From a candidate division WWE3 bacterium UBA1401 (GTDB lineage: Bacteria; Patescibacteriota; WWE3; UBA101185; UBA10185), in assembly GCA_002305115.1 (NCBI GenBank), contig DBQF01000003.1, positions 129,338 through 193,337 on the forward strand: a stretch of 64,000 bases of DNA, read 5' to 3'. Of the stretch, positions 12,143 to 64,000 are shown in pieces; position 1 is the stretch's first letter; every line of letters begins with the position of its first letter. A program made the position numbers and the translations under genes. The notes beneath the pieces are model-generated. The model searched no databases and had not been told where the DNA came from. It saw nothing but the letters and a program-made list of their open reading frames with translations.

Positions 12143-12170
12143 TACTCCCCCCTGAAAGGAGGGGGGAGTA
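12143..12170 (-). terminator. Strong intercistronic hairpin TACTCCCCCC-loop-GGGGGGAGTA after the pilin gene
   Basis: 10-bp GC-rich stem 12 nt past the stop of 12182..12715, with a partly T-rich trailer on the minus strand. Candidate attenuator. Confidence 0.55.
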
Positions 12171-12181
12171 ACCATCAAGCA

Positions 12182-12715
12182 TTAAGGACAAACCGGAGTA
12201 GCAGCATCAGAACAGTTAACGATCTCGCCAGCCATATTGTCATACATAAACACGGTGTTCGCCATACCAAAGGACTTACCGTAGAGTCTAAAGTCTGCAG
12301 TAGTAGCATCTCCATCGGGGTTAGTGCCGTCATAGCGATAAGCACACTGCCCAGTACCATCACCGGTATAACCATTAGCAGCAGAACAAGTCGCCGGTAA
12401 AGCATTTCCTGTTACAGTGAAATGGCAGACGTAATCGCCAGCTGCAGCGGCATCTACACAGTCTGCACTTGCGTTATCCAAAGACCCGATAAACTGGGCA
12501 TCAGTTGGGACAACACCATAAGCAGAAATGTAACCTTGTGTAGCAAGTGCCACCTTGTTCATAGTAGCCTTAACATTTGCGTCTTTAGCTCTATTCTGCT
12601 GAGCAGCAGGATCGATAACCGAAATCAACACACCGGCTAAAATACCAATAATAACGATAACAATCAAAAGCTCAATTAACGTAAAACCTCTTTCAAACCT
12701 TCTCATTCTTCTCAT
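12182..12715 (-). CDS. Type IV pilin, candidate major pilin
   Basis: ORF 12182..12748. AAGGAGGTG RBS lies 8 nt upstream of the ATG at 12715. Leader MRRMRRFERG/FTLIELLIVIVIIGILAG. Followed by a strong hairpin. Confidence 0.8.
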   Translation of the reverse strand: MRRMRRFERGFTLIELLIVIVIIGILAGVLISVIDPAAQQNRAKDANVKATMNKVALATQGYISAYGVVPTDAQFIGSLDNASADCVDAAAAGDYVCHFTVTGNALPATCSAANGYTGDGTGQCAYRYDGTNPDGDATTADFRLYGKSFGMANTVFMYDNMAGEIVNCSDAATPVCP

Positions 12716-12794
12716 ACTATCTACACCTCCTTTCCAAACACATACCAAAACTTAATATCTTCCTAGAACAAAAAAATAGGCAGAGCATAAAAAC

Positions 12795-13622: not shown

Positions 13623-13624
13623 AG

Positions 13625-15346: not shown

Positions 15347-15789
15347 TTAACAACTCCTCCTACCACAATAATTGAAAAGGGGTTTTGCTCATCGACGGTA
15401 AAAATAGCCTGGCGAGATACATCTGAAGCAATAAGTGTAGAGGCAATCCAGTTATTACCCGGTAAAGCGCGCAAGACGGTTACATCTGCTAAATCGTAAA
15501 CAATCTCTTCACCTGTTTTTAGAAATCTAACGCGTACTTCCGTATCAGTCACAGCTACAATATCAACAGGTAAATAAATAGGGGAAGCTTGCATAGCATT
15601 GGCAATTCTAGGCAGTTTATTTTTAATAACCGGAACCGCAGAATAGTTTTCCGGAATTTGCTTCGATGGAGAAAAGAAACCAGTTTCATGACCAATAACA
15701 AAAATAAGGGTGCTTATGATAGTCATGAAAACAAGGATTAGCTTAACTGATAAAGGTTCGAGGTTACTTTTAGGCAGGTTACCACGCAT
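15343..15789 (-). CDS. Small membrane-anchored hypothetical protein in the pilus operon
   Basis: 148 aa with one N-terminal TM segment. 4-nt overlap with the downstream gene. No recognisable motif. Confidence 0.5.
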   Translation of the reverse strand: MRGNLPKSNLEPLSVKLILVFMTIISTLIFVIGHETGFFSPSKQIPENYSAVPVIKNKLPRIANAMQASPIYLPVDIVAVTDTEVRVRFLKTGEEIVYDLADVTVLRALPGNNWIASTLIASDVSRQAIFTVDEQNPFSIIVVGGVVK

Positions 15790-15832
15790 ATATAGTTATA
15801 TTCTTGCATAGTTTGGCAACCTAATGCAAGAC

Positions 15833-17881: not shown

Positions 17882-17887
17882 ATAACG

Positions 17888-18763
17888 TTAAAATATATTC
17901 AAATACCAGTTTAGAATAAATTCACCCGCAAAGAAAGTAATAAAGCTGCCGGTAATCAAAAACGGGCCAAATGGAATAGTATCTTTCATGGACTTCTTTC
18001 CCATAGCTATAAGAAATAAACTATAGACACTTCCCACTAAAAAGCCCAAGAAAATTGCCAGCAAATTATGAGGAAAGCCATTAAACAGCCCGATTAAAAA
18101 ACCCAATTTCACATCGCCATAACCCATGCCTCTACCTTTTGTAATAAAAATAAGAAACAGGAAAAATAAAGAAATAGCTAGAGAAGAAAGTAATAAAGTA
18201 CCGATATTTTTCAAAACAGTTACCAGTTGATCTGTAAAATATCCAACCTGTAACATAAAAACGCCAAACTTGTCATTAGCTAAAAATGAGCGCAAATTTG
18301 TTAGATAATAAGCGTTTACAAATACCAGGTAACCCAAGGTTAACACTACCGCGGGTATGAGCACTTTGTCGGGGATGATTCTATATTTTGCATCTGTAAG
18401 CAAAATAATAATAAACATGCTTGTTATTACCAACAAATATATAAATCGCAGCCACATGGGTAATTGCCAGGTCGGAAAAGTTTCAAACTTTAGATAGTAG
18501 GCAATACCAAAAAAGGCCATGCCTGTGAGAAACTCAGATAGGGGATAGTAGATAGAAAGTTTTTCATTGCAGTATCTGCATCTGCCTTTTAGCAGCCCAA
18601 AAGAAATAATAGGTAATAAATCTTTTATAGAAAGTTTGTGTTTGCAAAAATCACAGTGCGACCTGCCAAATAGAAATGATTCTGAAGAAACAAGCCTATC
18701 GGCAATAAGGTTTATAAATGACCCCGTAAATAAGCCAAAGATGAAAAGGGTTACGTATAGCAT
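17888..18763 (-). CDS. pilD: Prepilin peptidase (A24 family) PilD
   Basis: N-terminal CDFC..CRYC zinc motif, GMGYGDVKL catalytic Asp region, polytopic membrane protein. Confidence 0.9.
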   Translation of the reverse strand: MLYVTLFIFGLFTGSFINLIADRLVSSESFLFGRSHCDFCKHKLSIKDLLPIISFGLLKGRCRYCNEKLSIYYPLSEFLTGMAFFGIAYYLKFETFPTWQLPMWLRFIYLLVITSMFIIILLTDAKYRIIPDKVLIPAVVLTLGYLVFVNAYYLTNLRSFLANDKFGVFMLQVGYFTDQLVTVLKNIGTLLLSSLAISLFFLFLIFITKGRGMGYGDVKLGFLIGLFNGFPHNLLAIFLGFLVGSVYSLFLIAMGKKSMKDTIPFGPFLITGSFITFFAGEFILNWYLNIF

Positions 18764-18799
18764 AGTTAAATGATAGCAGATAGGGAAGGTAACTTCTAA

Positions 18800-18825
18800 C
18801 CCGCCTTCGTCAAGACTTCGGCGGG
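18800..18825 (-). terminator. Hairpin CCCGCC-loop-GGCGGG downstream of pilin 18860..19366
   Basis: 6-bp GC stem flanked by inverted GTTAG-type heptads (18788..18800 and 18845..18857). An A-run at 18838-18843 gives a T-run on the minus strand, upstream of the stem. Confidence 0.4.
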
Positions 18826-18859
18826 CAGGCTTCTAGCAAAAAATGTCAGTGGTTAACAA

Positions 18860-19366
18860 TCACGGGCTAATAATAGTCAACGAGGTACCAACCTCATAAG
18901 CAGTATCTGAATCACCACCATCTGTGGTCATCTTCGTAGCATTATCAGGAGACTCTAAAACAGCATTCAACTCATAATTTGTGCCATTAGACGCATACGA
19001 ATAAACATTAGATCCAGTATTGAGCGGATCATACGGCAACGCTGCAAGATACTTCGTTAAACCGGTCTTGCCAACTATAGTAGTATAAGAAATCCAACCG
19101 TTACCGCTGGCAGATTGGGAATTAGCCTCACCGCTATTTCCTATAGTAGGAGCATCTACAGTTCCGGATAGTGCAATTTCACCATCGGCCAGCGCTAATG
19201 CGATAGCCTTATTCAATGTATCAATGTCTTCCATACGCTTAGCATCCCTACCTTTGGCAAGCAAAGCCGCGGGATTTATTGCTACAATCAAAACTCCTGC
19301 CAGAATAGAAATAATGGCGATTACTACTACAAGTTCTATAAGTGTAAAGCCTCTTTGTTTAGACAT
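18860..19366 (-). CDS. Type IV pilin (second major-pilin candidate)
   Basis: MSKQRG/FTLIELVVVIAIISILAG. Sits directly after pilC and is followed by a hairpin element. Confidence 0.85.
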   Translation of the reverse strand: MSKQRGFTLIELVVVIAIISILAGVLIVAINPAALLAKGRDAKRMEDIDTLNKAIALALADGEIALSGTVDAPTIGNSGEANSQSASGNGWISYTTIVGKTGLTKYLAALPYDPLNTGSNVYSYASNGTNYELNAVLESPDNATKMTTDGGDSDTAYEVGTSLTIISP

Positions 19367-19394
19367 AAGTATAGTTACCTCACTAATACCTGCT

Positions 19395-20597
19395 TTAAAT
19401 TGCAGAAGTAATTTTATAAATAGGTGTGATTATGGAAACTATTAAGACACCAACCATACCACCAAGCATAACTAAAATAACAGGCTCAAGAGCGGAAGAC
19501 AACCCTTTGATAGAGTTACTGGTCTCGCCATCAAAAAAGTCTGCCACTCTATCTAGTACTTCATCCATCTGTCCAGTTTCTTCACCCACACTTGCCATTT
19601 GGCCAAACAGCGGGGGAAAATTTTTATCATTCCTGAAATATTCTGCCAGTGAATTACCTTTCTCTACTGAACGTGCGGCAGCTAGCGCGGCGTTTTTATA
19701 CTCCATATTTTGCATAATTTGCGAAATGATATTAAGAGCTTCCACAATAGGAATAGCAGCTGAAATAAGCAGGCTTAAGGTACGCGCAAACGTGGTTATT
19801 TCTTTCTCACGGTTAATCTTCCCAAAAATAGGTACACCAAATAACAAAGAATTAGTCAGTGTCTTACCTTCAGTAGTAGACATAAACCATTTCATAAATA
19901 CAAACAAACCTGCTACAACAAGTACCACAATTAGTGTGTGTTTGGTAAATAACTCTGAGATGCTAATCATAGCCTGAGTAGCGGCCGGAAGTTCTACATC
20001 CAAGCTTTCATACATAGAAGCAAGTTTGGGAATAACAAAAACCATAAGGAGCACAAATACACCAACCATAGCCAGTAAAACAATTGCTGGGTAAATCATA
20101 GCACTTTTAAGGCGAGATTTGAGCTCTCTATCAGCTTCCATCGTTGCCGCAAGCCGTTGTAAAATCTCATCAAGCCGTCCGCTGGCCTCACCCGCCCTAA
20201 CTAAAGCTCTATAAGTAGGGGAAAACACACTGTCGTGCCTACCCATCGCCTGTGAAAGCGATGAACCCCCTTCCACATCCCGCAATACATCCATAATCAC
20301 TTTGCGGAACTTCGCATTAGTGGTCTGATCTGCCAACACTTCTAACGCGCGGGAAATAGGCAACCCCGCGGAAATCATAGTGGAGAACTGCCGGGTAAAT
20401 GTTACAATTTCCGTACCCGAAATACCTCTTATTTCCAACAGAGAATCTAGAAAAGAAGTCCGCTTCTGCTCCAGACTTACTACAAATAAGCCCTGGTTTT
20501 TCAGCAGTTCAACTGCCAGACCCTCACTTTTAGCATCAACCGTGCCTACGCGCCGTCCACCCGATTTATCTTTTGCAGTATACGAATATAAAGCCAT
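19395..20597 (-). CDS. pilC: Type IV pilus platform protein PilC (GspF family)
   Basis: 400 aa with a duplicated T2SSF architecture and three TM segments. Lies in pilB-pilT-pilC order. Confidence 0.9.
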   Translation of the reverse strand: MALYSYTAKDKSGGRRVGTVDAKSEGLAVELLKNQGLFVVSLEQKRTSFLDSLLEIRGISGTEIVTFTRQFSTMISAGLPISRALEVLADQTTNAKFRKVIMDVLRDVEGGSSLSQAMGRHDSVFSPTYRALVRAGEASGRLDEILQRLAATMEADRELKSRLKSAMIYPAIVLLAMVGVFVLLMVFVIPKLASMYESLDVELPAATQAMISISELFTKHTLIVVLVVAGLFVFMKWFMSTTEGKTLTNSLLFGVPIFGKINREKEITTFARTLSLLISAAIPIVEALNIISQIMQNMEYKNAALAAARSVEKGNSLAEYFRNDKNFPPLFGQMASVGEETGQMDEVLDRVADFFDGETSNSIKGLSSALEPVILVMLGGMVGVLIVSIITPIYKITSAI

Positions 20598-20598
20598 A

Positions 20599-21666
20599 TT
20601 ACTTTAACAACCTTCTAAACTCATCCGGCTTAAGGGCAAACTTGATAGCTTCTGCTTCATCTACTTTATTATCTACTACAAGTTGCGCCAAGCTACGTTC
20701 AAGGGAAACCATACCCAAATTGGAGCTTGTGTTAATTATATTGTCCAAATGCTGGGTTTTACCTTCTCTAATTAGATTTTTCACAGCTTCGCTGGCCAAC
20801 ATAATTTCCACTGCGGGTAATACACTCCCGTCTTTGGCGGGTACTAACCTTAATGACAAAACAACTTCCAAAATTTGGGCTAACTGCAACTGAATTTCCG
20901 CACGCCTGCCTTCCGGGAAAGTGCCAATAATTCTTTCCATGGTTTGCGAGGCTGAATTAGTGTGCAGCGTAGCCAAAACTAAATGTCCGGTTTCAGCAAC
21001 ATTCAACGCGGCGGCCATTGTCTCATAGTCGCGCATTTCTCCAAGCATCACCACGTTCGGATCTTGCCTGAGTACAGCCCGTAGGGCCAGATCCCATGAA
21101 GAGGTATCCGTGTGCATTTCCCTTTGCTCAATAAGAGACTTTTTGTTCGTAAAAATAAATTCAATAGGATCTTCTATTGTAATAATGTGTTCAGCTCTCA
21201 ATTCATTTATACGATCTAAAATTGATGCCACAGTTGTAGTTTTACCATGGCCGGTGGGTCCCACTACCAATACCAAGCCTTGCCTCAATTCGCATAAAGA
21301 AGAAATTATGGGTGGCATATTAAGCTGATCAAGTGTGGGGATAACCATAGGAACATGTCTTAACGATACGGACGGATAGCCTTTTTGATAAAAAGCGTTT
21401 ACCCTAAAGCGTGCCTTAGTGCCAAGTGCAACAGAAAAATCAAGCTCTCTATTCACATCAAAGATGTCTTTCTGCTCTGGTTCCAATACTTGAGATAAAA
21501 AGGCTTCAATGTCTTCTACAGTTAGAGAACTGTAATCTGACAATGTACTAAGCTGTCTGTTAATGCGCACAACAGGAGGAACTCCTACAGTTAAGTGTAA
21601 ATCCGAGGCGTCAAGTGAAACTACTCGTTCTAAAATACCTGTTACATTAAAATTTGCATTACTCAT
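20599..21666 (-). CDS. pilT: Twitching-motility retraction ATPase PilT
   Basis: 355 aa. Walker A GPTGHGKTTT, Asp box, Walker B VVMLGEMRD, His box ATLHTNSA. Has no N-terminal T2SSE_N domain and no zinc motif. Confidence 0.9.
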   Translation of the reverse strand: MSNANFNVTGILERVVSLDASDLHLTVGVPPVVRINRQLSTLSDYSSLTVEDIEAFLSQVLEPEQKDIFDVNRELDFSVALGTKARFRVNAFYQKGYPSVSLRHVPMVIPTLDQLNMPPIISSLCELRQGLVLVVGPTGHGKTTTVASILDRINELRAEHIITIEDPIEFIFTNKKSLIEQREMHTDTSSWDLALRAVLRQDPNVVMLGEMRDYETMAAALNVAETGHLVLATLHTNSASQTMERIIGTFPEGRRAEIQLQLAQILEVVLSLRLVPAKDGSVLPAVEIMLASEAVKNLIREGKTQHLDNIINTSSNLGMVSLERSLAQLVVDNKVDEAEAIKFALKPDEFRRLLK

Positions 21667-23420
21667 TTTGCTACCCTCAAAACTTCTTCCAAAGTTGTGG
21701 CACCCTCAAGCACACGTAAGGCACCATCTTGTAATAAGGTTAACATACCTTCTTGCACTGCGACAGACTGAATTTGGTCGGCAGTGCCCCTTTCAATAAC
21801 TAAGTGCGACACGTCATTGCTCATTTCTAATACTTCAAAAATGCCAACTCTGCCCTTATAACCGGTGCCACCACAGTGGTCACATCCTTTGCCCTTATAT
21901 AGCTTTGTAATGCCTTCTTTCATTTTCTTAATAGACTCAGCTATAGTGGGATCTTTTTCGATAATAATTTTCGAACCGGCCACTGGCTCAAGAATCTTTC
22001 TAATATCTTCCTTAACTTCTTCCGGAGGAGCATATTCTTCCTTACACTCGTTACAAACTCTTCTGACAAGTCTTTGGGCCACTATGGCGTTAACTGTAGA
22101 AGCAAGCAAGAAACTTTCAACTCCCATGTCCAAGAGCCTGGGTAAAGCACCCGACGCAGAGTTTGTATGAAGCGTGGACAGTACCAAGTGGCCAGTTAGG
22201 GCGGCATGAATAGCGAGCTCCGCGGTTTCATTATCACGAATTTCGCCGACCATGATGATGTTGGGATCTTGCCTTAGGAAAGAGCGTAAGCCTGTGGCAA
22301 ATGTAAGACCGGCTTGGGGATTTACCTGCACTTGGTTTATTCCTGGAATTCTAATTTCAACCGGATCTTCGAGTGTAGAAATGTTTACTCTAATAGTATT
22401 AAGCTTACTTAAGGCCGAGGCCAAAGTAACAGTTTTGCCTGAACCTGTAGGCCCTGTAACTAAGATCATACCTGTAGGCTTTAAGATAGATTCTTCTAAC
22501 CGGCGTAACGATAATCCGCGCAGCCCCAAATCTTTAAACGAAAATACTGCACCTTCCTCTTTCAAAAGCCTGATCACTACTTTTTCTCCATTTACTGTTG
22601 GAAGTGTAGACACACGTAAATCTGTAGTAGTTTTGCCCACCAATACTTTGAACCGACCATCTAATGGTAACCTTTTCTCGTCAATCTTCATTTTCGCTAG
22701 AATTTTGATTCTTGCAACAATGGAATCATGCATCTCTTTTGGAAGAGTGCGCTTTTCTTCTAACACACCATCTATACGATATCTAAGCCTGGTCTTATCT
22801 TCGAAGGGTTCTATATGAATATCGGATGCGCCTACTTTTACAGCAGTCTCCAAAATCATACCCACAATACGGGCGATAGGCGCGTCGCGCAAAGTAGCGT
22901 CAGAGATTTCCTCAGCGTTTTCTTCTATTTTTAAGGTAGTTTGGTTAATCTCTTCCAAGGCTGCTGTAATTTCCTCACCAATAGCTTTACCTTGCATATC
23001 TTCAATAACATGCTGAATACTACTTGGCGTGCTAACAAAAGGAATAACTCTATAGCCAGACTTTTTTTCTACAAACTCAATGGTAGGAAGATCAAGCGGG
23101 TCAATCATAGCCAGGGAAAGTTTGCTATCTTCCAGGGAAAAGGGGACTATGTTTAGCTTCTTCGCGATATTAATAGGAACAATATCCAACAGGGAAGGGT
23201 CTACTTTAACAGTTGCCAGATCTATAAAATCAATGCCATAGGATTCACCATAGGCTTTAACAAGTTCTTCTTCGCTCACGTAACCGCGTTCCTGGATTAT
23301 TTCACGTTCGGGTTTACCTGTATTGACGTGCTCAAATTTGATAGCAGAAAGTTGATCCGCAGTAATGAGGTTTTTTTCGTATAGAACTTCTTCAATTGAT
23401 TTTTTGCCAAGGGCTGTCAT
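21663..23420 (-). CDS. pilB: Type IV pilus extension ATPase PilB (GspE family)
   Basis: 585 aa. N-terminal T2SSE_N-like repeats, Walker A GPTGSGKT, STLHTNSA, and a tetracysteine motif CNEC...CDHC. Confidence 0.92.
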   Translation of the reverse strand: MTALGKKSIEEVLYEKNLITADQLSAIKFEHVNTGKPEREIIQERGYVSEEELVKAYGESYGIDFIDLATVKVDPSLLDIVPINIAKKLNIVPFSLEDSKLSLAMIDPLDLPTIEFVEKKSGYRVIPFVSTPSSIQHVIEDMQGKAIGEEITAALEEINQTTLKIEENAEEISDATLRDAPIARIVGMILETAVKVGASDIHIEPFEDKTRLRYRIDGVLEEKRTLPKEMHDSIVARIKILAKMKIDEKRLPLDGRFKVLVGKTTTDLRVSTLPTVNGEKVVIRLLKEEGAVFSFKDLGLRGLSLRRLEESILKPTGMILVTGPTGSGKTVTLASALSKLNTIRVNISTLEDPVEIRIPGINQVQVNPQAGLTFATGLRSFLRQDPNIIMVGEIRDNETAELAIHAALTGHLVLSTLHTNSASGALPRLLDMGVESFLLASTVNAIVAQRLVRRVCNECKEEYAPPEEVKEDIRKILEPVAGSKIIIEKDPTIAESIKKMKEGITKLYKGKGCDHCGGTGYKGRVGIFEVLEMSNDVSHLVIERGTADQIQSVAVQEGMLTLLQDGALRVLEGATTLEEVLRVAK

Positions 23421-37331: not shown

Positions 37332-39839
37332 TCAAACCTCCTTATCTTTTAATTTTCTTTGCTCCTCTGCTATTGCCATACCTTTATCAAATCTTGTGTC
37401 TAACCATCTGTGAACCTTATCTTCAACATAAGTATTATCTACACCGTACTTCTGTCTACTCAACTCCAGCACCTTTTGTTTATTGGGTGTTTTGGGTACA
37501 ACACATGTTCGAGGATCCCATGGTAATAATATTCTAGCAGAAAATGGCAATGAGGTCATACCATCAATCATGAGCTTTAAGTAGATATGAAACCTCTCTA
37601 GCGAAATTATGTCTGTGTCGTCAAAAAACGGAGCAAATTCATTAGCCAAGGCCTTAGCATCCGGGGCGCCTAAGGAAAATGTGGCAATAGTGCCCACGTT
37701 ACCAAACACAGCCTTAAGGAGCTCTTCAGGAAGCTGTGCAGTGTACTGATGAGTAAGATAAAGCCCCAATTTGTATTTTCTAGACTCAGACAGAATAGTT
37801 TCAAAGCTTCCGGTGGCAAAATTCTGGAACTCATCTACATATAAATAGAAAGGGCGTCTATCTTCATATGGTATTCTTGCTCGTTGCAGTGCCATGAATT
37901 GAATTCTGGATACAAGTAGGGCGCCTAATAGATTGGCATTATCCTCCCCTACCTTACCTTTGGACAAGTTCATAAGTAGGATCTTGCCGTCATTCATAAT
38001 ATTCCATATATCAATAGTAGAATTGCGCTGGCCTAGAATATTCCTAATGGTGGTGGAAGCCAAAAATCTATTTACCTTGTTCTGAATTGGCGCGATAGCC
38101 TCGGTGACAAGCTTTTGGTTTCCTTTCATAGCCTTGTACTCAGAATCCCAAAACTTTTGTACCATAGGATCTTTTACAAAATGTAGTATATACTTTAGGT
38201 AGTTGTCATCTTCCAACAACCTTGTAATACCAAGCATAGTAGTACCTGGAACTTCAAGTAGAGTCAATAAACAGTAGTTGAGTAAATATTCTAAGCGAGG
38301 TCCCCATGAATAGTCGAAATGCTGCTTAATGGCAGAAACAAGTGCCGAAGCCATAAGGTTCTTCTGAGATAAATCTTCCATCTCCAATAAATTTAGGCCA
38401 ACAGGACGCTCTGAATCTGAAGGATCCACGATAACTACATCATCAAGACGCTCATCAGGGATATGATCAAGTACTTTATCTATGGTTTCGCCGTGCGGAT
38501 CTAATACACCTACTCCAAACCCATTTTTTATATCCTGAGTAATCATTGTTTCCAAAAGTGTTGATTTACCTGTACCAGACTTTCCTATAAGATACATGTG
38601 GCGCAGCCTGTCGTCACCGTTTTTGAGTCCAAAACGTACCTGCTTACTTCTAAAGATGGTTTCCCCCATATAAGTACAATCAGAAGTTGGAAGTGTTGGA
38701 GGTGGTTCAGACTTTTTGGAATAAAGCCAGGAAATATTAGGAGTACCCAGCTCAGACGAAGGTAAGTGGAAAACAGTAGCAAGTTCTTCTACAGTAAGAA
38801 TATGAGTACATGCCGAATCTATAAAGCGTGCCCGAAATTCTTCAAGCGCGCCTGAAGTGGCGTCAACCTCAGTAGGCCTAAAACTATTGGTATAAGAGGA
38901 ATAAAACTGATTAAATGAGGCAGTTAGGGCCCTGAAGTTACTCTGAATTCGCTCAGGGGTTTGCGCAGTAGAAAGCACACGCATCTGAACACAAAAACCC
39001 ATCTTAGATAGTTTATTTTCTATAGCAGTCACCTCAAGTTCTTGTGAGGAACTAAGTTCAACCGGCTTGGGTTTATCAACATAACCCCCTGCCGTGGCAG
39101 GTTGAGGCGGAGCAAACACAGAAGTAAGTACCTCCACAACAATTTCTTTTACTTCATTTAATATTGCCTTAATAATTTCGGAAAACTCCTGGCCGAGTTT
39201 AAAAGACTTATCATAAGAACTGCCCGTTTTAATGCTTTCTATATACGCATAACCATCAGCTTGCCAACCATCGGGCACAGGCATAGCTAAAAGTTGGAGC
39301 CATACCTGCTCACCATCAGCTAGTTCGGAAAGTGAAGATGTAATACCAGACAAGGGATCTACCTCAAAGTCCCTAAAGGATTTTATGGGGAAAAAAACTT
39401 CTTTAATGGGCACAAAAGAAACCACTTCAAATTGATTGCCCTCAGGAATGCTTTGAGTATAGTCTTCAACCAACTTCATTATTGCCCGGGGATACTGAGC
39501 ATAAATTTGGCTTTCAACAAATTTTAAGATGGCCAGAGGGGCTGCCACATAAAAACGGATACCACCATTGCCGGAAAAAGCAATTTCAAAGGAAAAGTGT
39601 TCCTGGTCATCAGAATTTTCAGTAAGCAATCCATGTAACGCAGCGAACATGCCTTCTGCAGCCAAGGCAGACTCATTGCCACTACTCTGATCTTCATTAT
39701 TACGGGGAACCTGTATTTCTAATATCTGAAAATCTTTTTCTAGACTTTCTGTGGTCTTACTCTTAGCAAGCCTGGAAATAAGTTTTACTACTGCTAGAAG
39801 TAGTAGTGCAATAATTAGAACGTAGAAAAATATAGTCAT
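37332..39839 (-). CDS. Membrane-anchored P-loop ATPase, VirD4/TraG/TraD (type IV coupling protein)-like
   Basis: N-terminal TM segment. Walker A LIGKSGTGKST, VLDPHGE, and Walker B FYLYVDEFQNF. 835 aa. Confidence 0.65.
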   Translation of the reverse strand: MTIFFYVLIIALLLLAVVKLISRLAKSKTTESLEKDFQILEIQVPRNNEDQSSGNESALAAEGMFAALHGLLTENSDDQEHFSFEIAFSGNGGIRFYVAAPLAILKFVESQIYAQYPRAIMKLVEDYTQSIPEGNQFEVVSFVPIKEVFFPIKSFRDFEVDPLSGITSSLSELADGEQVWLQLLAMPVPDGWQADGYAYIESIKTGSSYDKSFKLGQEFSEIIKAILNEVKEIVVEVLTSVFAPPQPATAGGYVDKPKPVELSSSQELEVTAIENKLSKMGFCVQMRVLSTAQTPERIQSNFRALTASFNQFYSSYTNSFRPTEVDATSGALEEFRARFIDSACTHILTVEELATVFHLPSSELGTPNISWLYSKKSEPPPTLPTSDCTYMGETIFRSKQVRFGLKNGDDRLRHMYLIGKSGTGKSTLLETMITQDIKNGFGVGVLDPHGETIDKVLDHIPDERLDDVVIVDPSDSERPVGLNLLEMEDLSQKNLMASALVSAIKQHFDYSWGPRLEYLLNYCLLTLLEVPGTTMLGITRLLEDDNYLKYILHFVKDPMVQKFWDSEYKAMKGNQKLVTEAIAPIQNKVNRFLASTTIRNILGQRNSTIDIWNIMNDGKILLMNLSKGKVGEDNANLLGALLVSRIQFMALQRARIPYEDRRPFYLYVDEFQNFATGSFETILSESRKYKLGLYLTHQYTAQLPEELLKAVFGNVGTIATFSLGAPDAKALANEFAPFFDDTDIISLERFHIYLKLMIDGMTSLPFSARILLPWDPRTCVVPKTPNKQKVLELSRQKYGVDNTYVEDKVHRWLDTRFDKGMAIAEEQRKLKDKEV

Positions 39840-56796: not shown

Positions 56797-57174
56797 TTAA
56801 TAAACCATATCAGAACACTGGGCGATACGAACCTTCCCGAAATAGCCTAACTTCAATAAACCATTGTCTTTTGTTATAAACACGTCGCAGCTAGCATCTG
56901 ATGCTGAATGTAGTTGGATGTTATCTTCATAATCATCAGTTGGTCCAAGAAAGCTTTTCTGAGCTATGGCCGCAGTAGTATCAATAAAGTTGAATGTATT
57001 AAACAAAGTTTCGAATTTACTATCAGGAACAGTATGCTTATACACATAAACCCATGTACCTAAAGAAGCAACCGACACGTATAAAACGTGCCCAGCAACA
57101 GCTTCCACTATTGAAGCATCCCTGTCCTCACTCAAATCGATAAAAGCGTTTGTATCAAGAAACACTCTTGCCAT
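56797..57174 (-). CDS. vapC: PIN-domain toxin (VapC-like)
   Basis: MARVFLDTNAFIDL N-terminal acidic motif. 125 aa. Overlaps the upstream small ORF by 20 nt. Confidence 0.75.
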   Translation of the reverse strand: MARVFLDTNAFIDLSEDRDASIVEAVAGHVLYVSVASLGTWVYVYKHTVPDSKFETLFNTFNFIDTTAAIAQKSFLGPTDDYEDNIQLHSASDASCDVFITKDNGLLKLGYFGKVRIAQCSDMVY

Positions 57175-57421
57175 ACTTATCCTCTAAATGTGCTTGATAG
57201 AGTTCTCTTCTTTGGCTGTCAGGAATATGATCTTTTGACGAAAAAGCTGAGATGAATTTGCGTAATTGCTTGAGTGTAGCTGGTTTATCCTCTTGAATGT
57301 ATGGCTCGACCACACCAATTACTTTTGAGCGGTGCAATAGGTAAACACTCTCGCCACGCCTTAGTGAATCCTTAAGCACTGAAGCTTTTTTTCGTAGTTC
57401 TGTAGTAGAGATGTAATTCAT
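57155..57421 (-). CDS. Antitoxin (Phd/YefM-like)
   Basis: 88 aa. ISTTELRKKASVLKDSLRRGESVYLLHRSKVIGVV resembles the Phd/YefM N-terminal fold. Paired with the PIN gene. Confidence 0.65.
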   Translation of the reverse strand: MNYISTTELRKKASVLKDSLRRGESVYLLHRSKVIGVVEPYIQEDKPATLKQLRKFISAFSSKDHIPDSQRRELYQAHLEDKYGKSVS

Positions 57422-57481: not shown

Positions 57482-58300
57482 TTAATAGTACACAACACAA
57501 AAGTAACTCGTCGTTTCAACAGTATCATCCCCTAGCAACTCCCCTGAGTTCGTGTGATGTAAAACCTCCATAGAGGTAGCATCTACATTTTGCATGATCA
57601 TCAGTAAAGCCACAATGGCAGGTGGACTATCTGTATACTCACTATTTAGCGAGAGTATTTGAGCATAATCAAAATTGTTCATAAACTGAAGTGTTTTAGC
57701 ATCACGTTCTTTAGCTTCAGCACTAGTTAGATAATGAGAAAAATCTACAGACGCGACTACCACAGTGTCTGAAGTTACATAAGTACTGAGCTGATTAGCC
57801 AACTTTTGAATTGCCTCCCGGTGCATGTAACCACTAAGTAACACCGGAACTACCTGCACGTCTGGTAGGTAGTACCTAATAAAGGGCATCAATTCAGCCA
57901 TAGCTGGGTCTTGCACTACCACTTCTTGCGTATCTTCGGTTATGCCACCGTCTGTCAGCGACCTAACAAGTGCATAATCCGCTGCCACTGTGCCATAGGG
58001 TGTTTGCCAAGTGAGGTTACCGGTTAACATTAAGCTACCTCCTTGTTCTAAATGGTTTGGTCCAAGAATAATAAGGGTTTTCGGGCTCTGTTTAGCCAAG
58101 GTGGTAAAAAAATCCGCCAAAATAAACCGTGGTAAGGTATGATGTGGCACTATACCCCCTGCGATATGCCGAGTTTGCACTACATAACTAGAAGGTTTAG
58201 TACGACATAGAAACAATAGGCCAACAAATACACCAGCAAGTACTACTAAAGTCTTAGTGATCTTCATTACGCTTAAAGGGTAACCGTCGGTTTTTGACAT
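57482..58300 (-). CDS. MEMO1/AmmeMemoRadiSam-B-like (class III extradiol dioxygenase superfamily) protein, membrane-anchored
   Basis: GGIVPHH, IILGPNH and ASVDFSHY metal-site-like motifs, with an N-terminal TM segment. An alternative start at 58267 would reduce the overlap with the upstream gene. Confidence 0.5.
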   Translation of the reverse strand: MSKTDGYPLSVMKITKTLVVLAGVFVGLLFLCRTKPSSYVVQTRHIAGGIVPHHTLPRFILADFFTTLAKQSPKTLIILGPNHLEQGGSLMLTGNLTWQTPYGTVAADYALVRSLTDGGITEDTQEVVVQDPAMAELMPFIRYYLPDVQVVPVLLSGYMHREAIQKLANQLSTYVTSDTVVVASVDFSHYLTSAEAKERDAKTLQFMNNFDYAQILSLNSEYTDSPPAIVALLMIMQNVDATSMEVLHHTNSGELLGDDTVETTSYFCVVYY

Positions 58301-61300
58301 AGAAAATAGCCAACCATACCAAAATTCCGACTAGCACACTCGAGCCAAGTTGAGCAATACCTAGTCTGCCAGTTTGATGATACCGAGCAAACCCGGTAGG
58401 TAATTTTCCAGGAACAACAGCGGACACTTTATCGGTCTGAACGGTCTGTACAGCACTTCTACCATTTATTTCAGGCGAGTACATTAAAGAAACTGCCGCA
58501 GGGGGCACAGTGAAAGTACCTTCAGACACAACTCTAGCTTTGTAAACATAGGTTTGTTCACCCGGATCTATACGATACAGGGTAAGAATGGCGCCATTTT
58601 GAGTATACTCACGGTCATATCGGCCATAATAGGAATAGCTGGGACTAGAACGGTTGTCTACTTCGTTCAAAAAAGTTTCATTTACAGGAACTAATCCTGC
58701 GGGTAATTCATCTTCTATAACGCCATAAACTTCTGTATTAGCTAGCCCTCCAACTTTAAGCGTTACCAACACAGTATCTCCAACCCCTAGTGTATAGTGG
58801 TTTCCTTTTTCGTTAATGTACTCTCTGGTAATATACAAACCATTGGTAACCGGTTGAGCACCTCTGTCAGTACGAAAATCGGTTTGCATATAAGTTGAGT
58901 ACAATTGACCATCACCTTCTTTGGTTATAGTTAAGGAAGATCCTTCTGCCAGAATATCTGCAACAGGAACATCAACTGTAATAGGATCAGGAGAACTTGA
59001 GGTTACATTTCCTTGGGCAATATTCTTTCCATCTAGAGCCACTGAGTAAGCGTAATCAGGGGTTAGTTCATTGCCAGTCTTTGCAAATTCCACAATAGCT
59101 CGAACTACCTGAGCTGTAGCATAGCTGTTAGACCAATATCTGGCAACACGATTGCGCATTAGGTACCTTACTGCTTTTGCTGCTACTTCCCTATCCCCTT
59201 CTGCCATCAAAATAGCACGGACAGCTAAGGCAGTTGAGGCATCTTTTGACCCAAAGTTAGTTTTTGGCCCATTTTCCCAATATACTGAATCCCCCTGATC
59301 CTTGGCCATACCAATGAGCAAAGATAAACCGTTAGTAACAGAGTTATGATCACCATTCATGTAATTAGTCATTACCGCAAGTGAGAGAATATCGGGGGTT
59401 AGGCCAGCTAAATCTGGTACCGCAACAACTTTGTCCCTAGCGCCAAGTAACATTAACGCGTAGTTTTTGACAATGAGCTCTTCACGAGGAAACTCTTTAG
59501 GCTCACCTGTTGTAGCTAGATGATTTTCCAAATAGTTGCCAGCTTTCCATAGTAACTCGTCATCAACTTCAATACCTGCCTGGCGCGCCTGTAGTACATA
59601 CTCAAGTACATATGCTGTAATAAATGCATTGGAATTACCGGAGTATCCCCAGTTCCAACTACCGTTTCCACTTTGCAACGCAGTAAGCCGGGCTATACCT
59701 TTCTCGATCATGGCGTCAACATCTTTTTCGGCTAAAACTTTACTAAACAATGCGGGGTTTTGCTTTGCGATTACTGCGGGTACAAACCGGCTGGTTGTCT
59801 GTTCAATACAACCATAAGGATAGTCAATTAAGTACTCCATTGCTGAAGGAAGTGTGCCCACTAGAGTAGAAGCTAAAGACAAAGTTACGGAAGATCTAGC
59901 CTGATCACTATCTGGATGCAATTTTACTCTGTACGTCGTTGTGCCTTCGGTAAACTGGGAACTTTGCTCCTCAAAACCAAAAGGAATTACCGGCAGCGTA
60001 TGAGTTACTATATCCGCCAGGTCCTCATCTTTGCTGGAAGTAGCATCAAACGTAACTTGCGCTGCTTCATTGGCTTGCGTAGGAGTTACCTGCCACTCAA
60101 GTTGGTGAGTTTGATTAGTGCTAAGCACTAAATCCGAAATTACTTCTTGAGCAACTTCCCCGGCATCAAAAGTCAGCTTTACATCTAAAGGCTGCTCTTT
60201 AGGCGTGAAATTCTGTACTAGTGCTGTTAGTAATAAATTATCACCAACACGTAAAATGTTTGGAAGTATCGGCCTAATAATTAAGTCTTTCGTAACTACA
60301 ATAGTTTCTGTAGTTTGGCCAACTTGAGTAGAAGGCGTAACAGCTACTGCAGCTACTACCCAGGTAGTTAAATTATCGGGAAATTTAAAGCTTACCTTAG
60401 CCTTGCCGTTTTTATCCGTTTTGACCAAAGGATTCCAATAAGCTGTATCTTTAAACACAGATCTACTGCCACCTTTTTGGTTGTGTACCCACGCTCCCCC
60501 AGCAAAATAGGCATGATAATCCTCTACTGTTAAGTTGTAAACAGTAAACTTACCGCGCTGCCATTCTAGGGAAGTAATAGGAACTTGGTTGTTAGCACTA
60601 TCAACTAGTACATCACCAAGCTGGCTGGAACCGGCCGTCTGCCATTGTCCGTTAAGCCAAATAATATGGTCTGCCGTAACTTTTAAGTTGCCGTTGATAA
60701 TCAAGTATCCGGTTTCTTCTGCAGAGTGCGTAGCCGTTACTCTGGCCTTCTTTAAAGTACTGTCATGCTCGGAACGGGTTAGGACATAGTCTCCAACTTT
60801 AACTGTGTCTATAGCTCTTAATGAGCCATTTGCCATTAATACTTGAGTACCCTTAGCAAAACAACCTCCACCCCCTTCAGCAGCAGAACCAATAGATATG
60901 CCGGAGAGTGAATGGCTGCTTGTGGTGGTGTTATACCTAGATTTCCAAAATGCTTCAAAAATATCACCTAGTTTAGAATCTGAAAGTTCAAAAATAGCCT
61001 GATCTACCGCCCAAAGGGTAACGTCAGCCGCGACAGGATTACCAGCTAAATCAGTAGTTGCAATATTTATCTGCGTAGTTTCTCCGGGGCCGTAACTGGC
61101 GCTATCGGGTGTAATAGCCACCTTGATTTTCTTAGTGTCAGCACCTACGGACAAATTTAACTGCTCTGTGTCTAGAGCATAATCAGAGAAACTTGAAGCC
61201 CTTATATAAACGTTTGGTATATCTGTCGAGGTCAAAGGAAGCGAAACCGTATCACTTGCTCCAGATAGTTTAACCACCTGAAATCTTTGAACTCTGCCAC

Positions 61301-63380
61301 GCTCGAAAGTTAACAAAATGTCTCTATCAGGAATAGTAGAAAAGATATCAAGTTTGATCGTATCTGTGGGCTCATAGGTTTGCTTATCCGGAGCAAGAGT
61401 TATGTCTACAGCGGTAGTGTCAGCCGAATAGAACGGCTGATCTTTTGAGGAAACATAAGTATAAAAGGTTTTTACAATTTTATTACCCTGCTTGTCTTGT
61501 GCCTCTACAGTAATATCGTAAGAACCGGGCTGCGTAGGTGTAAAGGCTAGTGTAGTATTTCCCTGGGCATCGGTAGTTGCGGTTAACTGACTTAGTGATT
61601 CCTCTTCTCTTTTATAGGAAGAGTATTTGGCACCTTCCTTCCAATAGCTAGACCAGTAATAGCGCTTTACGCTTGCAGTAAGTGGTACATTCGCAATATT
61701 TGTATTGGCTCTATAAGGAAGTAACGTAATGGGCAGTTCAAATTTAGAGTCTACTGTACCCCTGTAATTTCCTTCTCTACGATAAATGCCAAATTCGCCC
61801 GGAAATACTAGTATGTTCTTTGAATCATATGAGCTACCGGACGAGTTAGCCGAAATGGTATAAATTTGGGGCTTACCTGGGGTTGCGCTAACCGTAGTAG
61901 GCATAGATATGGTTGCTTTTCCATACTGGTCAAGAGTGGCGGAACCCTCTGTAACACTAGTGTTGCCATACCAAAACCAGAACCTATAACTATAAGGGTT
62001 ACCAAAGCTATGCCTTTGAGCATCAGACAAGTAGGTGTAATCGTGAAAGTTAACTGCTCTAACCCTATATTCTACTAATTGATTAGCAAGAGGCTGGCCG
62101 GAAAAGTAATTGCCTGTGATAGTAAACGAACTATGATCACCGGATACCAGGTCTGTGGAAGGAACAGAAACATCTATAGTGAATTCAGGTTTACGGAAGT
62201 ATTCAACATCAAAGCTAGTGGTGTCCTCGCGCGCCCAAGGGTCATCTGAATCAGCATTAGGCATAGATACAACTAAAGTGTAATAACCAATCTTTGCTTT
62301 GTCGGAAAGCTGATAGTAGCCATCTATGGTGCCTGCAGAAGAAATAGAGTAATTTTTCTCAAAAACAGGCTTGGCATCACCATAGCGATAGCCATCGTAA
62401 ATGCTTACCGTTACTTCCCCACTGGGAATTGTGTAACGAGCATCATCATCATCTCGTAAAATGGTTTTGAAATAAACGGTATCTCCAGGCTTATACAAGG
62501 GTCTATCGGTAAAAACAAAATACTTAGTAGCAACACTCTTGCGGTTAAAGCTGGTGTAGAATCTATAAGAGCTTAAGTGTGTGAGATTTATTGGAAGTAG
62601 TGCCACGTCATCGTCACGGTATACAAGTGCAACATCGGCCTGAGCGGAAAGCCGCGCTTTAGCAATACCCTCCGAATTAAACTCAAGGGTTTCCAGAATC
62701 TTTTTGCCGTTTTCCAGGTTATATATGTGAATAGTCCCATCTGAGACACTCCTTTTAGTAGTAAAATCCTGACCCCAGAAGATAAATTTATTATCCCCTT
62801 CTTTTACAATTACCCCCGTACCCGATCTAACAATAAAAGCATGGGCAGTAGTTTCACCAACAGAAAGTTTTAAATACCAAATACCGGTGCCTTCCAAAGG
62901 AAGTGGAACGCGGTCTTCGTAAGAAGATGCTAAATTGAGGGTATGCGTAACAGTAGTAACGTGGTGCAAAGTAGTAGTATCTATAGATTTGTTTAATTGA
63001 TTCCCTGCTTCCCCATACACTAGATAATCTAGTAAAACCGTAGCTGAAGCCTCGTATATGTCAATGGTAAGCTCCCCCAATATCTTATAACCACCTATAT
63101 CTATGGCAGACTCGTCGGTAGAAGCCAGCCCTATTATGGCACCGTTACTGATTTTTGCATCTCCATAAAAATAAATCTGCGGATTTACACGTGCCCCCAT
63201 CACGTCTTGGGAAACTTCTTGAGGAGTAACAGTCTGAGGGGATGTAACTGGTGAAGGATTACGTAACTTGCCTAAATGGATACCATAACTGCCAGACAAA
63301 CCGAAAATTAAGAAAATTAGAGTCAGTTTTAATAACAAATCGGAGGTTGGCTTCTGGTTTTGAGGGATTAGAGTGTCCAT
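58254..63380 (-). CDS. Alpha-2-macroglobulin-like thioester protein (1708 aa) with an inserted Hint domain
   Basis: N-terminal TM/signal-anchor. MG-type repeats (FVFTDRPLYKPGDTVYFKTILR). Post-bait segment RSVFKDTAYWNP..FPDNLTTW. Thioester YPYGCIEQTTS (CIEQ at 59799..59810). C-terminal hydrophobic segment plus basic tail (sorting-signal-like). Confidence 0.88.
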   Translation of the reverse strand: MDTLIPQNQKPTSDLLLKLTLIFLIFGLSGSYGIHLGKLRNPSPVTSPQTVTPQEVSQDVMGARVNPQIYFYGDAKISNGAIIGLASTDESAIDIGGYKILGELTIDIYEASATVLLDYLVYGEAGNQLNKSIDTTTLHHVTTVTHTLNLASSYEDRVPLPLEGTGIWYLKLSVGETTAHAFIVRSGTGVIVKEGDNKFIFWGQDFTTKRSVSDGTIHIYNLENGKKILETLEFNSEGIAKARLSAQADVALVYRDDDVALLPINLTHLSSYRFYTSFNRKSVATKYFVFTDRPLYKPGDTVYFKTILRDDDDARYTIPSGEVTVSIYDGYRYGDAKPVFEKNYSISSAGTIDGYYQLSDKAKIGYYTLVVSMPNADSDDPWAREDTTSFDVEYFRKPEFTIDVSVPSTDLVSGDHSSFTITGNYFSGQPLANQLVEYRVRAVNFHDYTYLSDAQRHSFGNPYSYRFWFWYGNTSVTEGSATLDQYGKATISMPTTVSATPGKPQIYTISANSSGSSYDSKNILVFPGEFGIYRREGNYRGTVDSKFELPITLLPYRANTNIANVPLTASVKRYYWSSYWKEGAKYSSYKREEESLSQLTATTDAQGNTTLAFTPTQPGSYDITVEAQDKQGNKIVKTFYTYVSSKDQPFYSADTTAVDITLAPDKQTYEPTDTIKLDIFSTIPDRDILLTFERGRVQRFQVVKLSGASDTVSLPLTSTDIPNVYIRASSFSDYALDTEQLNLSVGADTKKIKVAITPDSASYGPGETTQINIATTDLAGNPVAADVTLWAVDQAIFELSDSKLGDIFEAFWKSRYNTTTSSHSLSGISIGSAAEGGGGCFAKGTQVLMANGSLRAIDTVKVGDYVLTRSEHDSTLKKARVTATHSAEETGYLIINGNLKVTADHIIWLNGQWQTAGSSQLGDVLVDSANNQVPITSLEWQRGKFTVYNLTVEDYHAYFAGGAWVHNQKGGSRSVFKDTAYWNPLVKTDKNGKAKVSFKFPDNLTTWVVAAVAVTPSTQVGQTTETIVVTKDLIIRPILPNILRVGDNLLLTALVQNFTPKEQPLDVKLTFDAGEVAQEVISDLVLSTNQTHQLEWQVTPTQANEAAQVTFDATSSKDEDLADIVTHTLPVIPFGFEEQSSQFTEGTTTYRVKLHPDSDQARSSVTLSLASTLVGTLPSAMEYLIDYPYGCIEQTTSRFVPAVIAKQNPALFSKVLAEKDVDAMIEKGIARLTALQSGNGSWNWGYSGNSNAFITAYVLEYVLQARQAGIEVDDELLWKAGNYLENHLATTGEPKEFPREELIVKNYALMLLGARDKVVAVPDLAGLTPDILSLAVMTNYMNGDHNSVTNGLSLLIGMAKDQGDSVYWENGPKTNFGSKDASTALAVRAILMAEGDREVAAKAVRYLMRNRVARYWSNSYATAQVVRAIVEFAKTGNELTPDYAYSVALDGKNIAQGNVTSSSPDPITVDVPVADILAEGSSLTITKEGDGQLYSTYMQTDFRTDRGAQPVTNGLYITREYINEKGNHYTLGVGDTVLVTLKVGGLANTEVYGVIEDELPAGLVPVNETFLNEVDNRSSPSYSYYGRYDREYTQNGAILTLYRIDPGEQTYVYKARVVSEGTFTVPPAAVSLMYSPEINGRSAVQTVQTDKVSAVVPGKLPTGFARYHQTGRLGIAQLGSSVLVGILVWLAIFYVKNRRLPFKRNEDH
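60480..60863 (-). other. Hint / bacterial intein-like (BIL) domain, 128 aa, embedded in the A2M-like ORF
   Basis: Block A CFAKGTQVLMANGSLRAIDTVKVGDYVL, block B KVTADH, blocks F/G VYNLTVEDYHAYFAGGAWVHN. The +1 residue is Gln. Gly-rich linkers on both sides. Confidence 0.85.
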
Positions 63381-63455: not shown

Positions 63456-63866
63456 CTAAGGCACCAACCTCTTTATACCGTCAAACCCATCTAGGTGTGA
63501 ATCGTAAGAATAGATGGTCTCTATACCATACTTGCGGGCATAAGCAACAGTCAGACAGTCTTCAAAGTCGATATTCATTTCTGAATAGGTATTAAGTGCA
63601 GCTACAAAAGTGGCCTTACTGTCACATTTTACGTTCGCCAAGCTCACAATTGGTAACAAGATATTCTTAACTTCAGAGGGGGTCTTATTATAAAGCTTAT
63701 TGGAGGAAAGCACATACACTAACTCACAAAGCACGTGTTCGGCAACCCTGAGTACTATTTCCTCTTGTTCAACTTTTTTCAGAAGTTTTCTCACTTGCCT
63801 AGACTTCTGGGCATCATCATTGACCAGATACCTTATGAAAATATTTGTATCTGCAAAATACTCCAT
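63456..63866 (-). CDS. vapC: PIN-domain toxin (VapC-like)
   Basis: ORF 63456..63923. Likely start MEYFADTNIFIRYL at 63866, 1 nt after the stop of the upstream small ORF. Confidence 0.75.
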   Translation of the reverse strand: MEYFADTNIFIRYLVNDDAQKSRQVRKLLKKVEQEEIVLRVAEHVLCELVYVLSSNKLYNKTPSEVKNILLPIVSLANVKCDSKATFVAALNTYSEMNIDFEDCLTVAYARKYGIETIYSYDSHLDGFDGIKRLVP

Positions 63867-63867
63867 A

Positions 63868-64000
63868 TTAATCCAGGTGCTTTTGCATCCTTTCTTCCCG
63901 GGCAATTCTGCGCATCTCATCATCTGATATACCTAACGGCTCAAGAATTCCGTACACATCATCTAGAGTGTATTCTGGGGCTCTTAGGATTACTTTGTCA
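63868..64000 (-). CDS. Putative antitoxin, C-terminal 44 aa (5' end outside window)
   Basis: Open frame ..DKVILRAPEYTLDDVYGILEPLGISDDEMRRIAREERMQKHLD ending at TAA 63868-63870. Its position immediately upstream of the PIN gene supports the call. Confidence 0.5.
   Translation of the reverse strand, partial: DKVILRAPEYTLDDVYGILEPLGISDDEMRRIAREERMQKHLD

Follow-up and report, generated by a model that had tools for sequence, protein, structure and literature searches.

Within a 64,000-nt stretch of the genome of candidate division WWE3 bacterium UBA1401 (contig DBQF01000003.1, positions 129,338 to 193,337 of the forward strand; hereafter the window, numbered from its first letter), a gene of the alpha-2-macroglobulin (A2M) family carries a 128-amino-acid Hint domain at the position of the protease bait. 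Judged by its sequence and fold, the inserted segment is best classified as a type-A bacterial intein-like (BIL) domain, with all catalytic residues present. Most likely, an A2M of the Patescibacteria type, anchored in the membrane, acquired this BIL Hint domain in its Gly-rich bait loop long ago and has kept it since. The arrangement is not rare, being the usual one in a large clade of Patescibacteria A2Ms with hundreds of relatives. As to its role, we lean tentatively, and somewhat short of an even chance, towards a self-excising BIL domain that re-joins the chain, so that the mature protein would act as an ordinary protease-triggered thioester trap. No description of an A2M with a Hint, intein or BIL domain was found in the full-text literature searched, outside which most subscription journals lie. 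The preliminary description of this DNA had considered the architecture undescribed, and no paper in that literature paired a macroglobulin with a Hint domain or an intein; within these bounds, this would be the first case found of an autocatalytic domain at the A2M bait position.

The host gene (58254..63380, minus strand, like all features described within it) comprises 1708 codons without interruption according to the list of open reading frames (ORFs) and the translation. Five Pfam domains exceeded their cut-offs in the protein: MG2 (amino acids (aa) 286-379), the bait-region domain A2M_BRD (PF07703; 60984..61403, aa 660-799; E 2e-15 over the full profile, 1-140), which aligns with residues 630-886 of the Escherichia coli A2M, ECAM (YfhM), the A2M domain (PF00207; 60174..60446, aa 979-1069; E 9e-21, profile 1-92), the thioester-containing domain TED (Pfam match to aa 1171-1292) and the C-terminal macroglobulin (MG) domain bMG10 (PF17973; 58470..58841, aa 1514-1637; E 5e-20, full profile); bMG3 and bMG6 matched weakly. 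This combination of an MG-domain series, a bait-region domain and a C-terminal MG domain, seen with both Pfam and Foldseek, assigns the protein to the A2M family. Its sequence matches in the PDB were ECAM (5A42, 4ZIQ and 4RTD) and Salmonella A2M (SaA2M; 4U48), with which it shares multiple MG domains, the bait-region domain, a TED with a CxEQ motif, the C-terminal MG domain and predicted membrane anchoring. Identity to ECAM is evidently low, as phmmer aligned four local segments only, with domain scores of 12.7-52.1 bits.

Within the TED, GCIEQ (aa 1190-1194) includes the thioester motif CIEQ (59799..59810, aa 1191-1194), which aligns with CLEQ at ECAM position 1187 and, being intact, predicts an internal thioester. 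The entire protein has two cysteines only, C840 (Cys1 of the Hint domain) and C1191 (the thioester), and exactly two are likewise found in 92 of the 120 closest homologs; a lipobox Cys at the N-terminus is absent. Where ECAM relies on its lipobox, the WWE3 protein has two hydrophobic stretches, both recognized by hydropathy: an N-terminal segment (63279..63341, aa ~14-34), which on this basis may serve as a signal anchor or signal peptide, and a C-terminal helix followed by a basic tail (58296..58358, aa ~1675-1695), which is probably a second membrane anchor. By the same measure, the N-terminal segment recurs in 94 of 110 Hint-bearing and 16 of 18 Hint-less relatives, and the C-terminal helix in 91 of 110 and 17 of 18, respectively.

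The Hint domain itself (60480..60863, aa 840-967) runs from CFAKGTQ to AWVHN. It displays the block A residue Cys840 (Cys1; 60861..60863), the block B motif TxxH as Thr902-His905 (60666..60677) and a terminal His966-Asn967 (60480..60485). PT-HINT (PF07591) matched aa 853-967 (E 1.7e-13; 51.5 bits against a cut-off of 27.7) and intein_Cterm (TIGR01443 of NCBIfam) likewise exceeded its cut-off on the 1708-aa protein, while the Pfam Hint model PF01079 scored far under its own (17 versus 29.7 bits). By sequence, the best solved relative was the Clostridium thermocellum BIL domain 2LWY (E 1e-11; 32% identity), followed among PDB matches by the pretoxin-type Hint domain 8W20 (E 1e-9) and then by Tetrahymena BUBL1 BIL2; classical inteins aligned over block A only. 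There are no other Hint domains within the 64-kb window.

Type-A BIL domains are characterized by Cys1, TxxH, His-Asn at the C-terminus, a +1 residue that is not a nucleophile and the lack of an endonuclease (PMC4031507, PMC7765530). The segment combines Cys1 and TxxH, a His-Asn end followed by a non-nucleophilic residue (Gln968) and a Hint fold without a homing endonuclease, and it resembles 2LWY in each of these features as well as in its length of ~130 aa. Related families fit less well. Class-1 inteins require Cys, Ser or Thr at +1, which is Gln here; sporadic presence at a fixed site alongside an insert-free allele is, in turn, a property that the segment does share with them. PT-HINT domains of polymorphic toxins, such as 8W20, provide the best Pfam model, and in that context they precede C-terminal toxin domains that they are thought to release; here, the C-flank is the rest of the A2M (A2M domain, TED and MG10), with no toxin domain. 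A Hedgehog-type Hog domain is likewise not indicated, as the segment ends in His-Asn, continues into the A2M domain and leaves PF01079 below threshold.

Part of the protein (aa 645-1085 only) was modelled with AlphaFold2 from a 24-sequence family alignment. The Hint domain, included in this model, folded with a predicted local distance difference test (pLDDT) score of 84-94, between linkers of low confidence (pLDDT <50 for aa 799-838 and 971-979); the overall predicted template modelling score (pTM) of just 0.41 is as expected for beads joined by flexible linkers. In a Foldseek search against the PDB, the Hint part matched Tetrahymena thermophila BUBL1 BIL2 best (6Y75/6TMM; E 2e-10, target template modelling (TM) score 0.79-0.81) and superimposed on 2LWY with a TM score of 0.85 and a root-mean-square deviation of 1.8 Å. 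The flanking MG domains retrieved ECAM, Salmonella A2M, human A2M and C3/C4/C5, with identities of 10-16% to ECAM and SaA2M over the modelled region. By sequence and fold combined, the nearest solved relatives of the segment are thus the BIL domains 2LWY and 6Y75/6TMM. Translation mapping, profile searches with Hint and A2M MG/thioester models and structure prediction therefore all agree with the preliminary description, which had proposed a BIL-type Hint domain in this ORF and whose coordinates for the ORF, the Hint domain and CIEQ were exact; coincidence can be dismissed as the source of such a combination of features.

The Hint domain is inserted between two linkers. The upstream one (60864..60986, aa 799-839), equivalent to the bait loop, reads ...HSLSGISIGSAAEGGGG and ends in Gly-Gly, whereas the downstream one (QKGGSRSVFKD; 60447..60479, aa 968-978) opens with the +1 Gln and contains Lys+2, Gly+3 and Arg973; AAEGGGG and QKGGS, the Gly-rich brackets pointed out beforehand, are indeed the immediate flanks. 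The phmmer alignment with ECAM breaks across query positions 817-992, and to locate the insertion the ECAM sequence was taken from NC_000913 and added to the family alignment. ECAM ...IEGQGRL942AALRFGGDGDELKR956... then lies opposite ...AEGGGG[Hint]QKGGSR973..., placing the insertion at ECAM ~939-950. In ECAM, the disordered bait spans R923-L942, R956 touches the C-terminal MG domain once the bait is cleaved, and bait cleavage is what activates the bacterial A2M (PMC4498604). Accordingly, the Hint domain sits at the C-terminal edge of the bait-loop equivalent.

Two further landmarks agree with this placement, both of which the preliminary description had invoked. The insertion lies six residues ahead of the R..F.DTAYWNP motif that opens the Pfam A2M domain, and the segment TAYWNP...PDNLTTW is the one that follows the bait in all A2Ms. 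Moreover, 224 aa separate Asn967 from Cys1191, matching the proposed spacing of ~220 aa and comparing with ~231-245 aa between bait and thioester in ECAM. The upstream linker (aa 799-838), predicted to be disordered and aligned with the ECAM bait, would be the bait itself, yet it is conserved rather than hypervariable; next to the bait loop of ECAM, this one is short, rich in Gly and conserved, besides accommodating the 128-aa Hint domain. At the DNA level, an in-frame GGTGG microhomology occurs in the Gly codons on both sides of the Hint domain (60475..60480 and 60864..60875, minus strand), and these repeats offer a plausible slippage or recombination path to its precise loss.

Searching with the full-length protein gave 530 proteins at E ≤ 1e-10, the best 120 of which were listed and analysed. 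All 120 combine PF07591 with A2M domains at a size of ~1700 aa and 43-56% identity, and their named sources are Gottesman-, Davies- or Woesebacteria or Patescibacteria, plus one 'Limnocylindrales'. Cys840, Thr902, His905, His966, Asn967, Gly838-839 and Lys969 are each found in 120/120, as are the C, E and Q of the thioester. The +1 residue is Gln in 81, Glu in 20 and Asp in 19 proteins, Gly+3 occurs in 118, and in 118 the domain measures 128-129 aa; an endonuclease insert is absent. Mean column conservation within the Hint domain (0.69) is on par with that of the host domains (0.60-0.79).

A broader set was collected by an exhaustive HMMER search with aa 660-1300, from which 150 representatives were listed: 128 bear the Hint domain, down to ~32% identity, and 22 lack it, a ratio that is biased and is not a frequency, as the search query included the Hint domain. 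Among the Hint-bearing representatives, 110 are full-length; all of these retain the catalytic residues and the -1 Gly (110/110), 106 have the -2 Gly and 107 (97%) have Lys+2. The +1 position varies more freely (Q, D, E, G, S, N, K, A or L), with Ser in 3 of ~110, and neither Cys nor Thr was ever encountered there across the ~230 homologs of both sets. The family stands apart from the BIL domains described so far, which occupy hypervariable regions of non-conserved secreted proteins (PMC7765530): here, the host family is conserved and the domain, passed on vertically throughout a phylum-level radiation, always keeps the same site, between strongly conserved flanks (GG|C...HN|xKG).

A one-genome-per-species scan found 596 related loci, the best ~35 of which are Hint-bearing, with credible titles from Microgenomates, Parcubacteria-type groups, Saccharibacteria and Peribacteria. 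Many of these Hint-bearing loci (L001-L035) lie in bulk-submitted metagenome-assembled genomes titled 'uncultured Gammaproteobacteria/Pseudomonadales', 'Micavibrio' or 'Nevskiaceae'. The loci of such Proteobacteria-titled assemblies, including the Memo-like neighbour of the A2M gene described below, look similar to the ones from named Patescibacteria, which could mean either wrong titles or a family that extends past Patescibacteria.

Instead of the Hint domain, the 22 Hint-less representatives encode a continuous Gly-rich loop (...HSLxGI....AEKGG-GGGDx-R..FKDTAYWNP). Distant A2Ms from Chloroflexota, Armatimonadota and Peribacteria share K-GGGGG-[DE]...R..F.DTAYW at the equivalent site, which marks the poly-Gly loop as ancestral, with the Hint domain seated within it. 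The same K-GGGGG-[D/E] arrangement ahead of R..F.DTAYW was noted in Hint-less loci from Chloroflexota, Peribacteria and relatives (L038, L044, L048, L049, L051, L054, L058, L059, L063, L067, L068, L071, L073-L075 and L079). Such a conserved, pentaglycine-like bait is unusual among A2Ms; that it might target glycyl-glycine endopeptidases is pure speculation.

The relationship between the two forms was explored in neighbour-joining trees. A first full tree was star-like, with uninformative deep nodes. In a bootstrapped tree built from 1459 non-Hint columns (200 replicates), Hint-less forms are nested among Hint-bearing clades at least three times: P0260 pairs with the Hint-bearing P0210 (99% bootstrap), P0250 and P0261 fall within the Hint clade P0167/P0179/P0202 (100%) and P0269 groups with P0255/P0266 (100%). 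A single Hint-less sister clade, implying one gain, was rejected, as its monophyly was recovered in 0/200 replicates. Comparison of the junctions revealed that the nested absences drop the Hint domain along with the +1 and +2 residues, and a Lys is present at all in ~10 of 19 Hint-less loops. Outside the junction, no host position in the alignment tracked the presence of the Hint domain, the best candidates being S/T or V/I swaps, and co-varying host residues were dropped as an explanation. The notion that the two membrane anchors are an adaptation to a two-chain product was likewise discarded, because Hint-less forms carry both. The invariant thioester, too, is common to the two forms.

In the best 120 homologs, the identity of the Hint domain follows that of its host (r = 0.79), with equal-sized host control blocks reaching 0.82-0.87. 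In a very divergent set of 50%-identity representatives, the correlation fell to r = 0.23. This had suggested horizontal mobility of the Hint domain, an idea that we dismissed given the saturation plateau seen upon binning and the correlation in the closer set. At deep divergence, the Hint domain is better conserved than the host halves (mean identity 0.44 versus 0.31-0.34), in keeping with selection on its chemistry. The domain is vertically inherited, co-diverging with its host gene, and its constant length, lack of an endonuclease, host-like GC content and host-tracking identity point to an integral rather than a mobile element.

With the catalytic residues unchanged in all homologs of both sets (120/120 and 110/110), autoprocessing of the Hint domain is strongly implied. 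Based on established BIL and intein chemistry, it would proceed after export and folding. An N-to-S acyl shift would turn the Gly839-Cys840 peptide bond into a thioester, Asn967 would cyclise and the Asn967-Gln968 bond would be cut, and an amine of the C-flank would resolve the Gly839 thioester. This chemistry is the one expected from the likeness to 2LWY, a type of BIL domain for which splicing through the free amine of the C-terminal fragment is possible (PMC4031507). The resolving group could be the new alpha-amine of residue 968, as in the type-A BIL route of Dassa and Aranko, or the epsilon-amine of the near-invariant Lys969, as in Tetrahymena BIL2. In the latter, the N-flank is a ubiquitin-like domain whose C-terminus is joined to a Lys epsilon-amine as an isopeptide (PMC8616854). 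The N-flank of the A2M-borne domain ends in Gly-Gly, like the ubiquitin-like domains flanking BIL2. Ubiquitin-like domains typically end this way. BIL2 differs in being eukaryotic, in its ubiquitin-like flanks and in its conjugation role, with 25% identity to our domain, and a corresponding use of Lys969 would be hypothetical. The invariant Gly-Gly N-flank and Lys+2, present in 97% of Hint-bearing but dispensable in Hint-less loops, would fit either ligation route. Either way, the product loop ...AEGGGG-QKGGSR... would be equivalent to the ...AEKGGGGGDVR... loop that Hint-less relatives encode directly.

Whether processing occurs, and ends in re-ligation rather than in a nick, we infer from comparative evidence. 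Self-removal is the most economical explanation because bait cleavage activates these proteins, selection on the thioester is absolute and sister lineages manage with a continuous loop; an invariant thioester combined with activation by bait cleavage argues against constitutive nicking. The nested Hint-less forms, the lack of any tracking residue and the thioester, anchors and Memo-like neighbour shared by both forms are also better explained by an element that removes itself and leaves an ordinary A2M behind. The preliminary description had envisaged 'a self-maturing or self-triggering' trap. Its 'self-maturing' half fits this picture better, and autoprocessing as such is backed by the invariant catalytic residues; a 'self-triggering' trap is disfavoured by the nested Hint-less forms, and the idea that the Hint domain replaces the protease as trigger finds no comparative support.

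Several points weigh against self-removal with re-joining. According to reviews, type-A BIL domains splice poorly, and cleavage products predominate (PMC7664689, PMC7765530, PMC4031507). If ligation were essential, it should favour Ser, Thr or Cys at +1, of which Cys and Thr never occur and Ser is found in 3 of ~110. C3, C4 and cut TEP1 are stable as nicked two-chain A2M-family proteins, and nicking therefore need not equal firing. The neighbour-joining trees of these distant sequences support only the three nested cases well and leave the deep nodes unresolved, and autoprocessing is a prediction for every member of the family.

Some of these objections also speak for a doubtful but serious contender, in which the Hint domain cuts one or both junctions without re-ligation and so produces a two-chain A2M, each half with a membrane anchor of its own. 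The nick would either pre-prime the trap, similar to the proprotein processing of C3/C4, or fire it, in which case the CIEQ thioester would react with whatever is near, no attacking protease being required. Mainly N- and C-cleavage products would then be formed, as reported for BIL domains; a family under selection for efficient splicing would be expected to gain a nucleophile at +1, which this one has not; and with anchors predicted at both ends in most members, neither fragment would be lost. The site, being the bait-loop equivalent, is where cleavage is the natural trigger, and the stability of some nicked thioester proteins would permit such a product. C3, C4 and C5, whose folds Foldseek matched to the flanking domains, provide a parallel to a whole folded domain at this position: they carry the anaphylatoxin domain together with a chain-processing site, and removal of the domain activates the thioester protein. 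In these proteins, however, external proteases (furin and convertases) do the processing, and the inserted domain is unrelated to Hint. Cleavage without ligation is at odds with the repeated emergence of uncut-loop forms within Hint clades without a compensating change elsewhere, and the dual anchors, thioester and operon partner are alike in both forms, so none of them adapts the protein to two chains; constitutive self-firing, moreover, would waste an invariant thioester. An effector role built into the Hint domain, by which the A2M would fire or attach covalently in the absence of an attacking protease, be it through a conditional self-trigger of CIEQ or through a second, lysine-reactive warhead as in Tetrahymena BIL2, we consider unlikely overall. 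Its warhead version, in which an external amine (an attacker's Lys, a cell-wall amine or a partner protein) resolves the Gly839 thioester and the N-terminal half becomes covalently attached in trans, much as BIL2 attaches ubiquitin-like domains and Hedgehog cholesterol, is improbable when taken separately. It draws on BIL2, the best structural match, which attaches an N-flank ending in Gly-Gly to lysines on several different substrates, on the resemblance of the invariant GG|CF to the ubiquitin-like GG end and to the G|CF of Hedgehog, and on there being just two cysteines, both placed to form thioesters. The acceptor, however, is purely hypothetical, the near-invariant Lys+2 would be an intramolecular acceptor out-competing external amines, and repeated loss of the Hint domain without compensation speaks against an essential additional function that would require it.

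Still less probable is a module that never cuts and stays in the mature protein, either plugging it as a folded unit or contributing to the bait. The confidently folded domain between disordered linkers would suit such a role, as would conservation spanning the whole domain beyond its catalytic residues; yet Cys1, T..H and His-Asn are invariant in >200 sequences down to ~32% identity, the pattern that catalytic selection produces, and degenerate Hint domains normally lose these residues. The probability of an assembly chimera, a pseudogene or a recent invasion by a mobile intein is practically negligible, and this explanation, for which no supporting point was found, was considered already rejected. 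The ORF is uninterrupted, GC content is uniform across the Hint domain and host gene (0.44 versus 0.42), an identical protein is encoded on an independent Logan assembly contig (run SRR5321237) and also appears under an NCBI source, and hundreds of homologs share an architecture in which the Hint domain lacks an endonuclease and co-diverges with its host.

Self-removing or not, the protein would unite two internal-thioester chemistries in one polypeptide, that of the A2M/complement trap and that of Hint/intein autoprocessing, with one Cys devoted to each. For A2M biology, it offers a natural setting in which to find out if a cut at one defined position of the bait will fire an A2M that is monomeric. 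In the field of inteins and BIL domains, it represents a BIL domain kept at one site over a phylum-scale radiation, and the natural 'minus' alleles, the invariant Gly-Gly N-flank and Lys+2 make the debated amine-mediated ligation directly testable. If the element merely splices out, it would neatly illustrate how intein-like elements persist; nicking or conjugation would amount to a new activation mode of thioester proteins. Were the effector role to be true, it would equip the surface of episymbiotic Patescibacteria with a covalent trap or adhesin that activates itself.

With respect to the genomic context, a Memo-like gene (PF01875; 57482..58300, minus strand; E 1.5e-25) lies directly downstream of the A2M gene. 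The public gene call for this copy starts later and yields 182 aa, so its start position is uncertain. In tblastn searches, a Memo-like match adjoined the A2M gene in 23 Hint-bearing loci, immediately downstream in 22 (including L002-L008, L010, L014-L016, L019-L022, L024-L026, L028, L032 and L035) and upstream in L033. A Memo-like partner specific to the Hint domain was ruled out, as the gene is also found next to the A2M gene in the Hint-less loci L034 and L036. A 4-nt start/stop overlap between the two genes is common, and 19 of 21 Memo-like neighbour ORFs begin with an N-terminal hydrophobic segment, suggesting that the protein is probably exported. The two genes thus appear to form a conserved unit of the Patescibacteria-type A2M clade, with or without the Hint domain, and the Memo-like gene is absent beside A2M loci that are more distant, most of them with titles naming Chloroflexota or Peribacteria. 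In E. coli, the neighbour of yfhM is pbpC; with a Memo-like gene in this position and no lipobox, the protein does not belong to the lipoprotein/pbpC subtype represented by ECAM. For Patescibacteria, organisms that live attached to other cells, this would be a widespread surface operon encoding an A2M and a putative secreted Memo-like protein.

The A2M/Memo pair is flanked by genes for PIN-domain (VapC-like) proteins at 63456..63923 and 56797..57174 (both minus strand), the latter overlapping an upstream 88-aa ORF without a Pfam match (57155..57421, minus strand) in a toxin-antitoxin-like layout. Elsewhere in the window, a long same-strand run of small ORFs (5107..23420, minus strand) ends in PilC-like (19395..20597) and PilB-like (21663..23420) genes and probably represents a gene cluster for a type IV pilus; no Pfam match was obtained for two large ORFs, 15833..17881 (682 aa) and 13625..15346 (573 aa). 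A VirD4/TrwB/HerA-like ATPase of 835 aa is encoded at 37332..39839 (minus strand). Rfam identified one tRNA only over the window. With gyrB/gyrA, dnaB, HtrA, an S41 peptidase, ribosomal protein S6, SSB and YchF alongside the type IV pilus, VirD4-like ATPase and PIN toxin genes, and a GC content of 41%, the gene content of the window resembles that of a small-genome bacterial chromosome.

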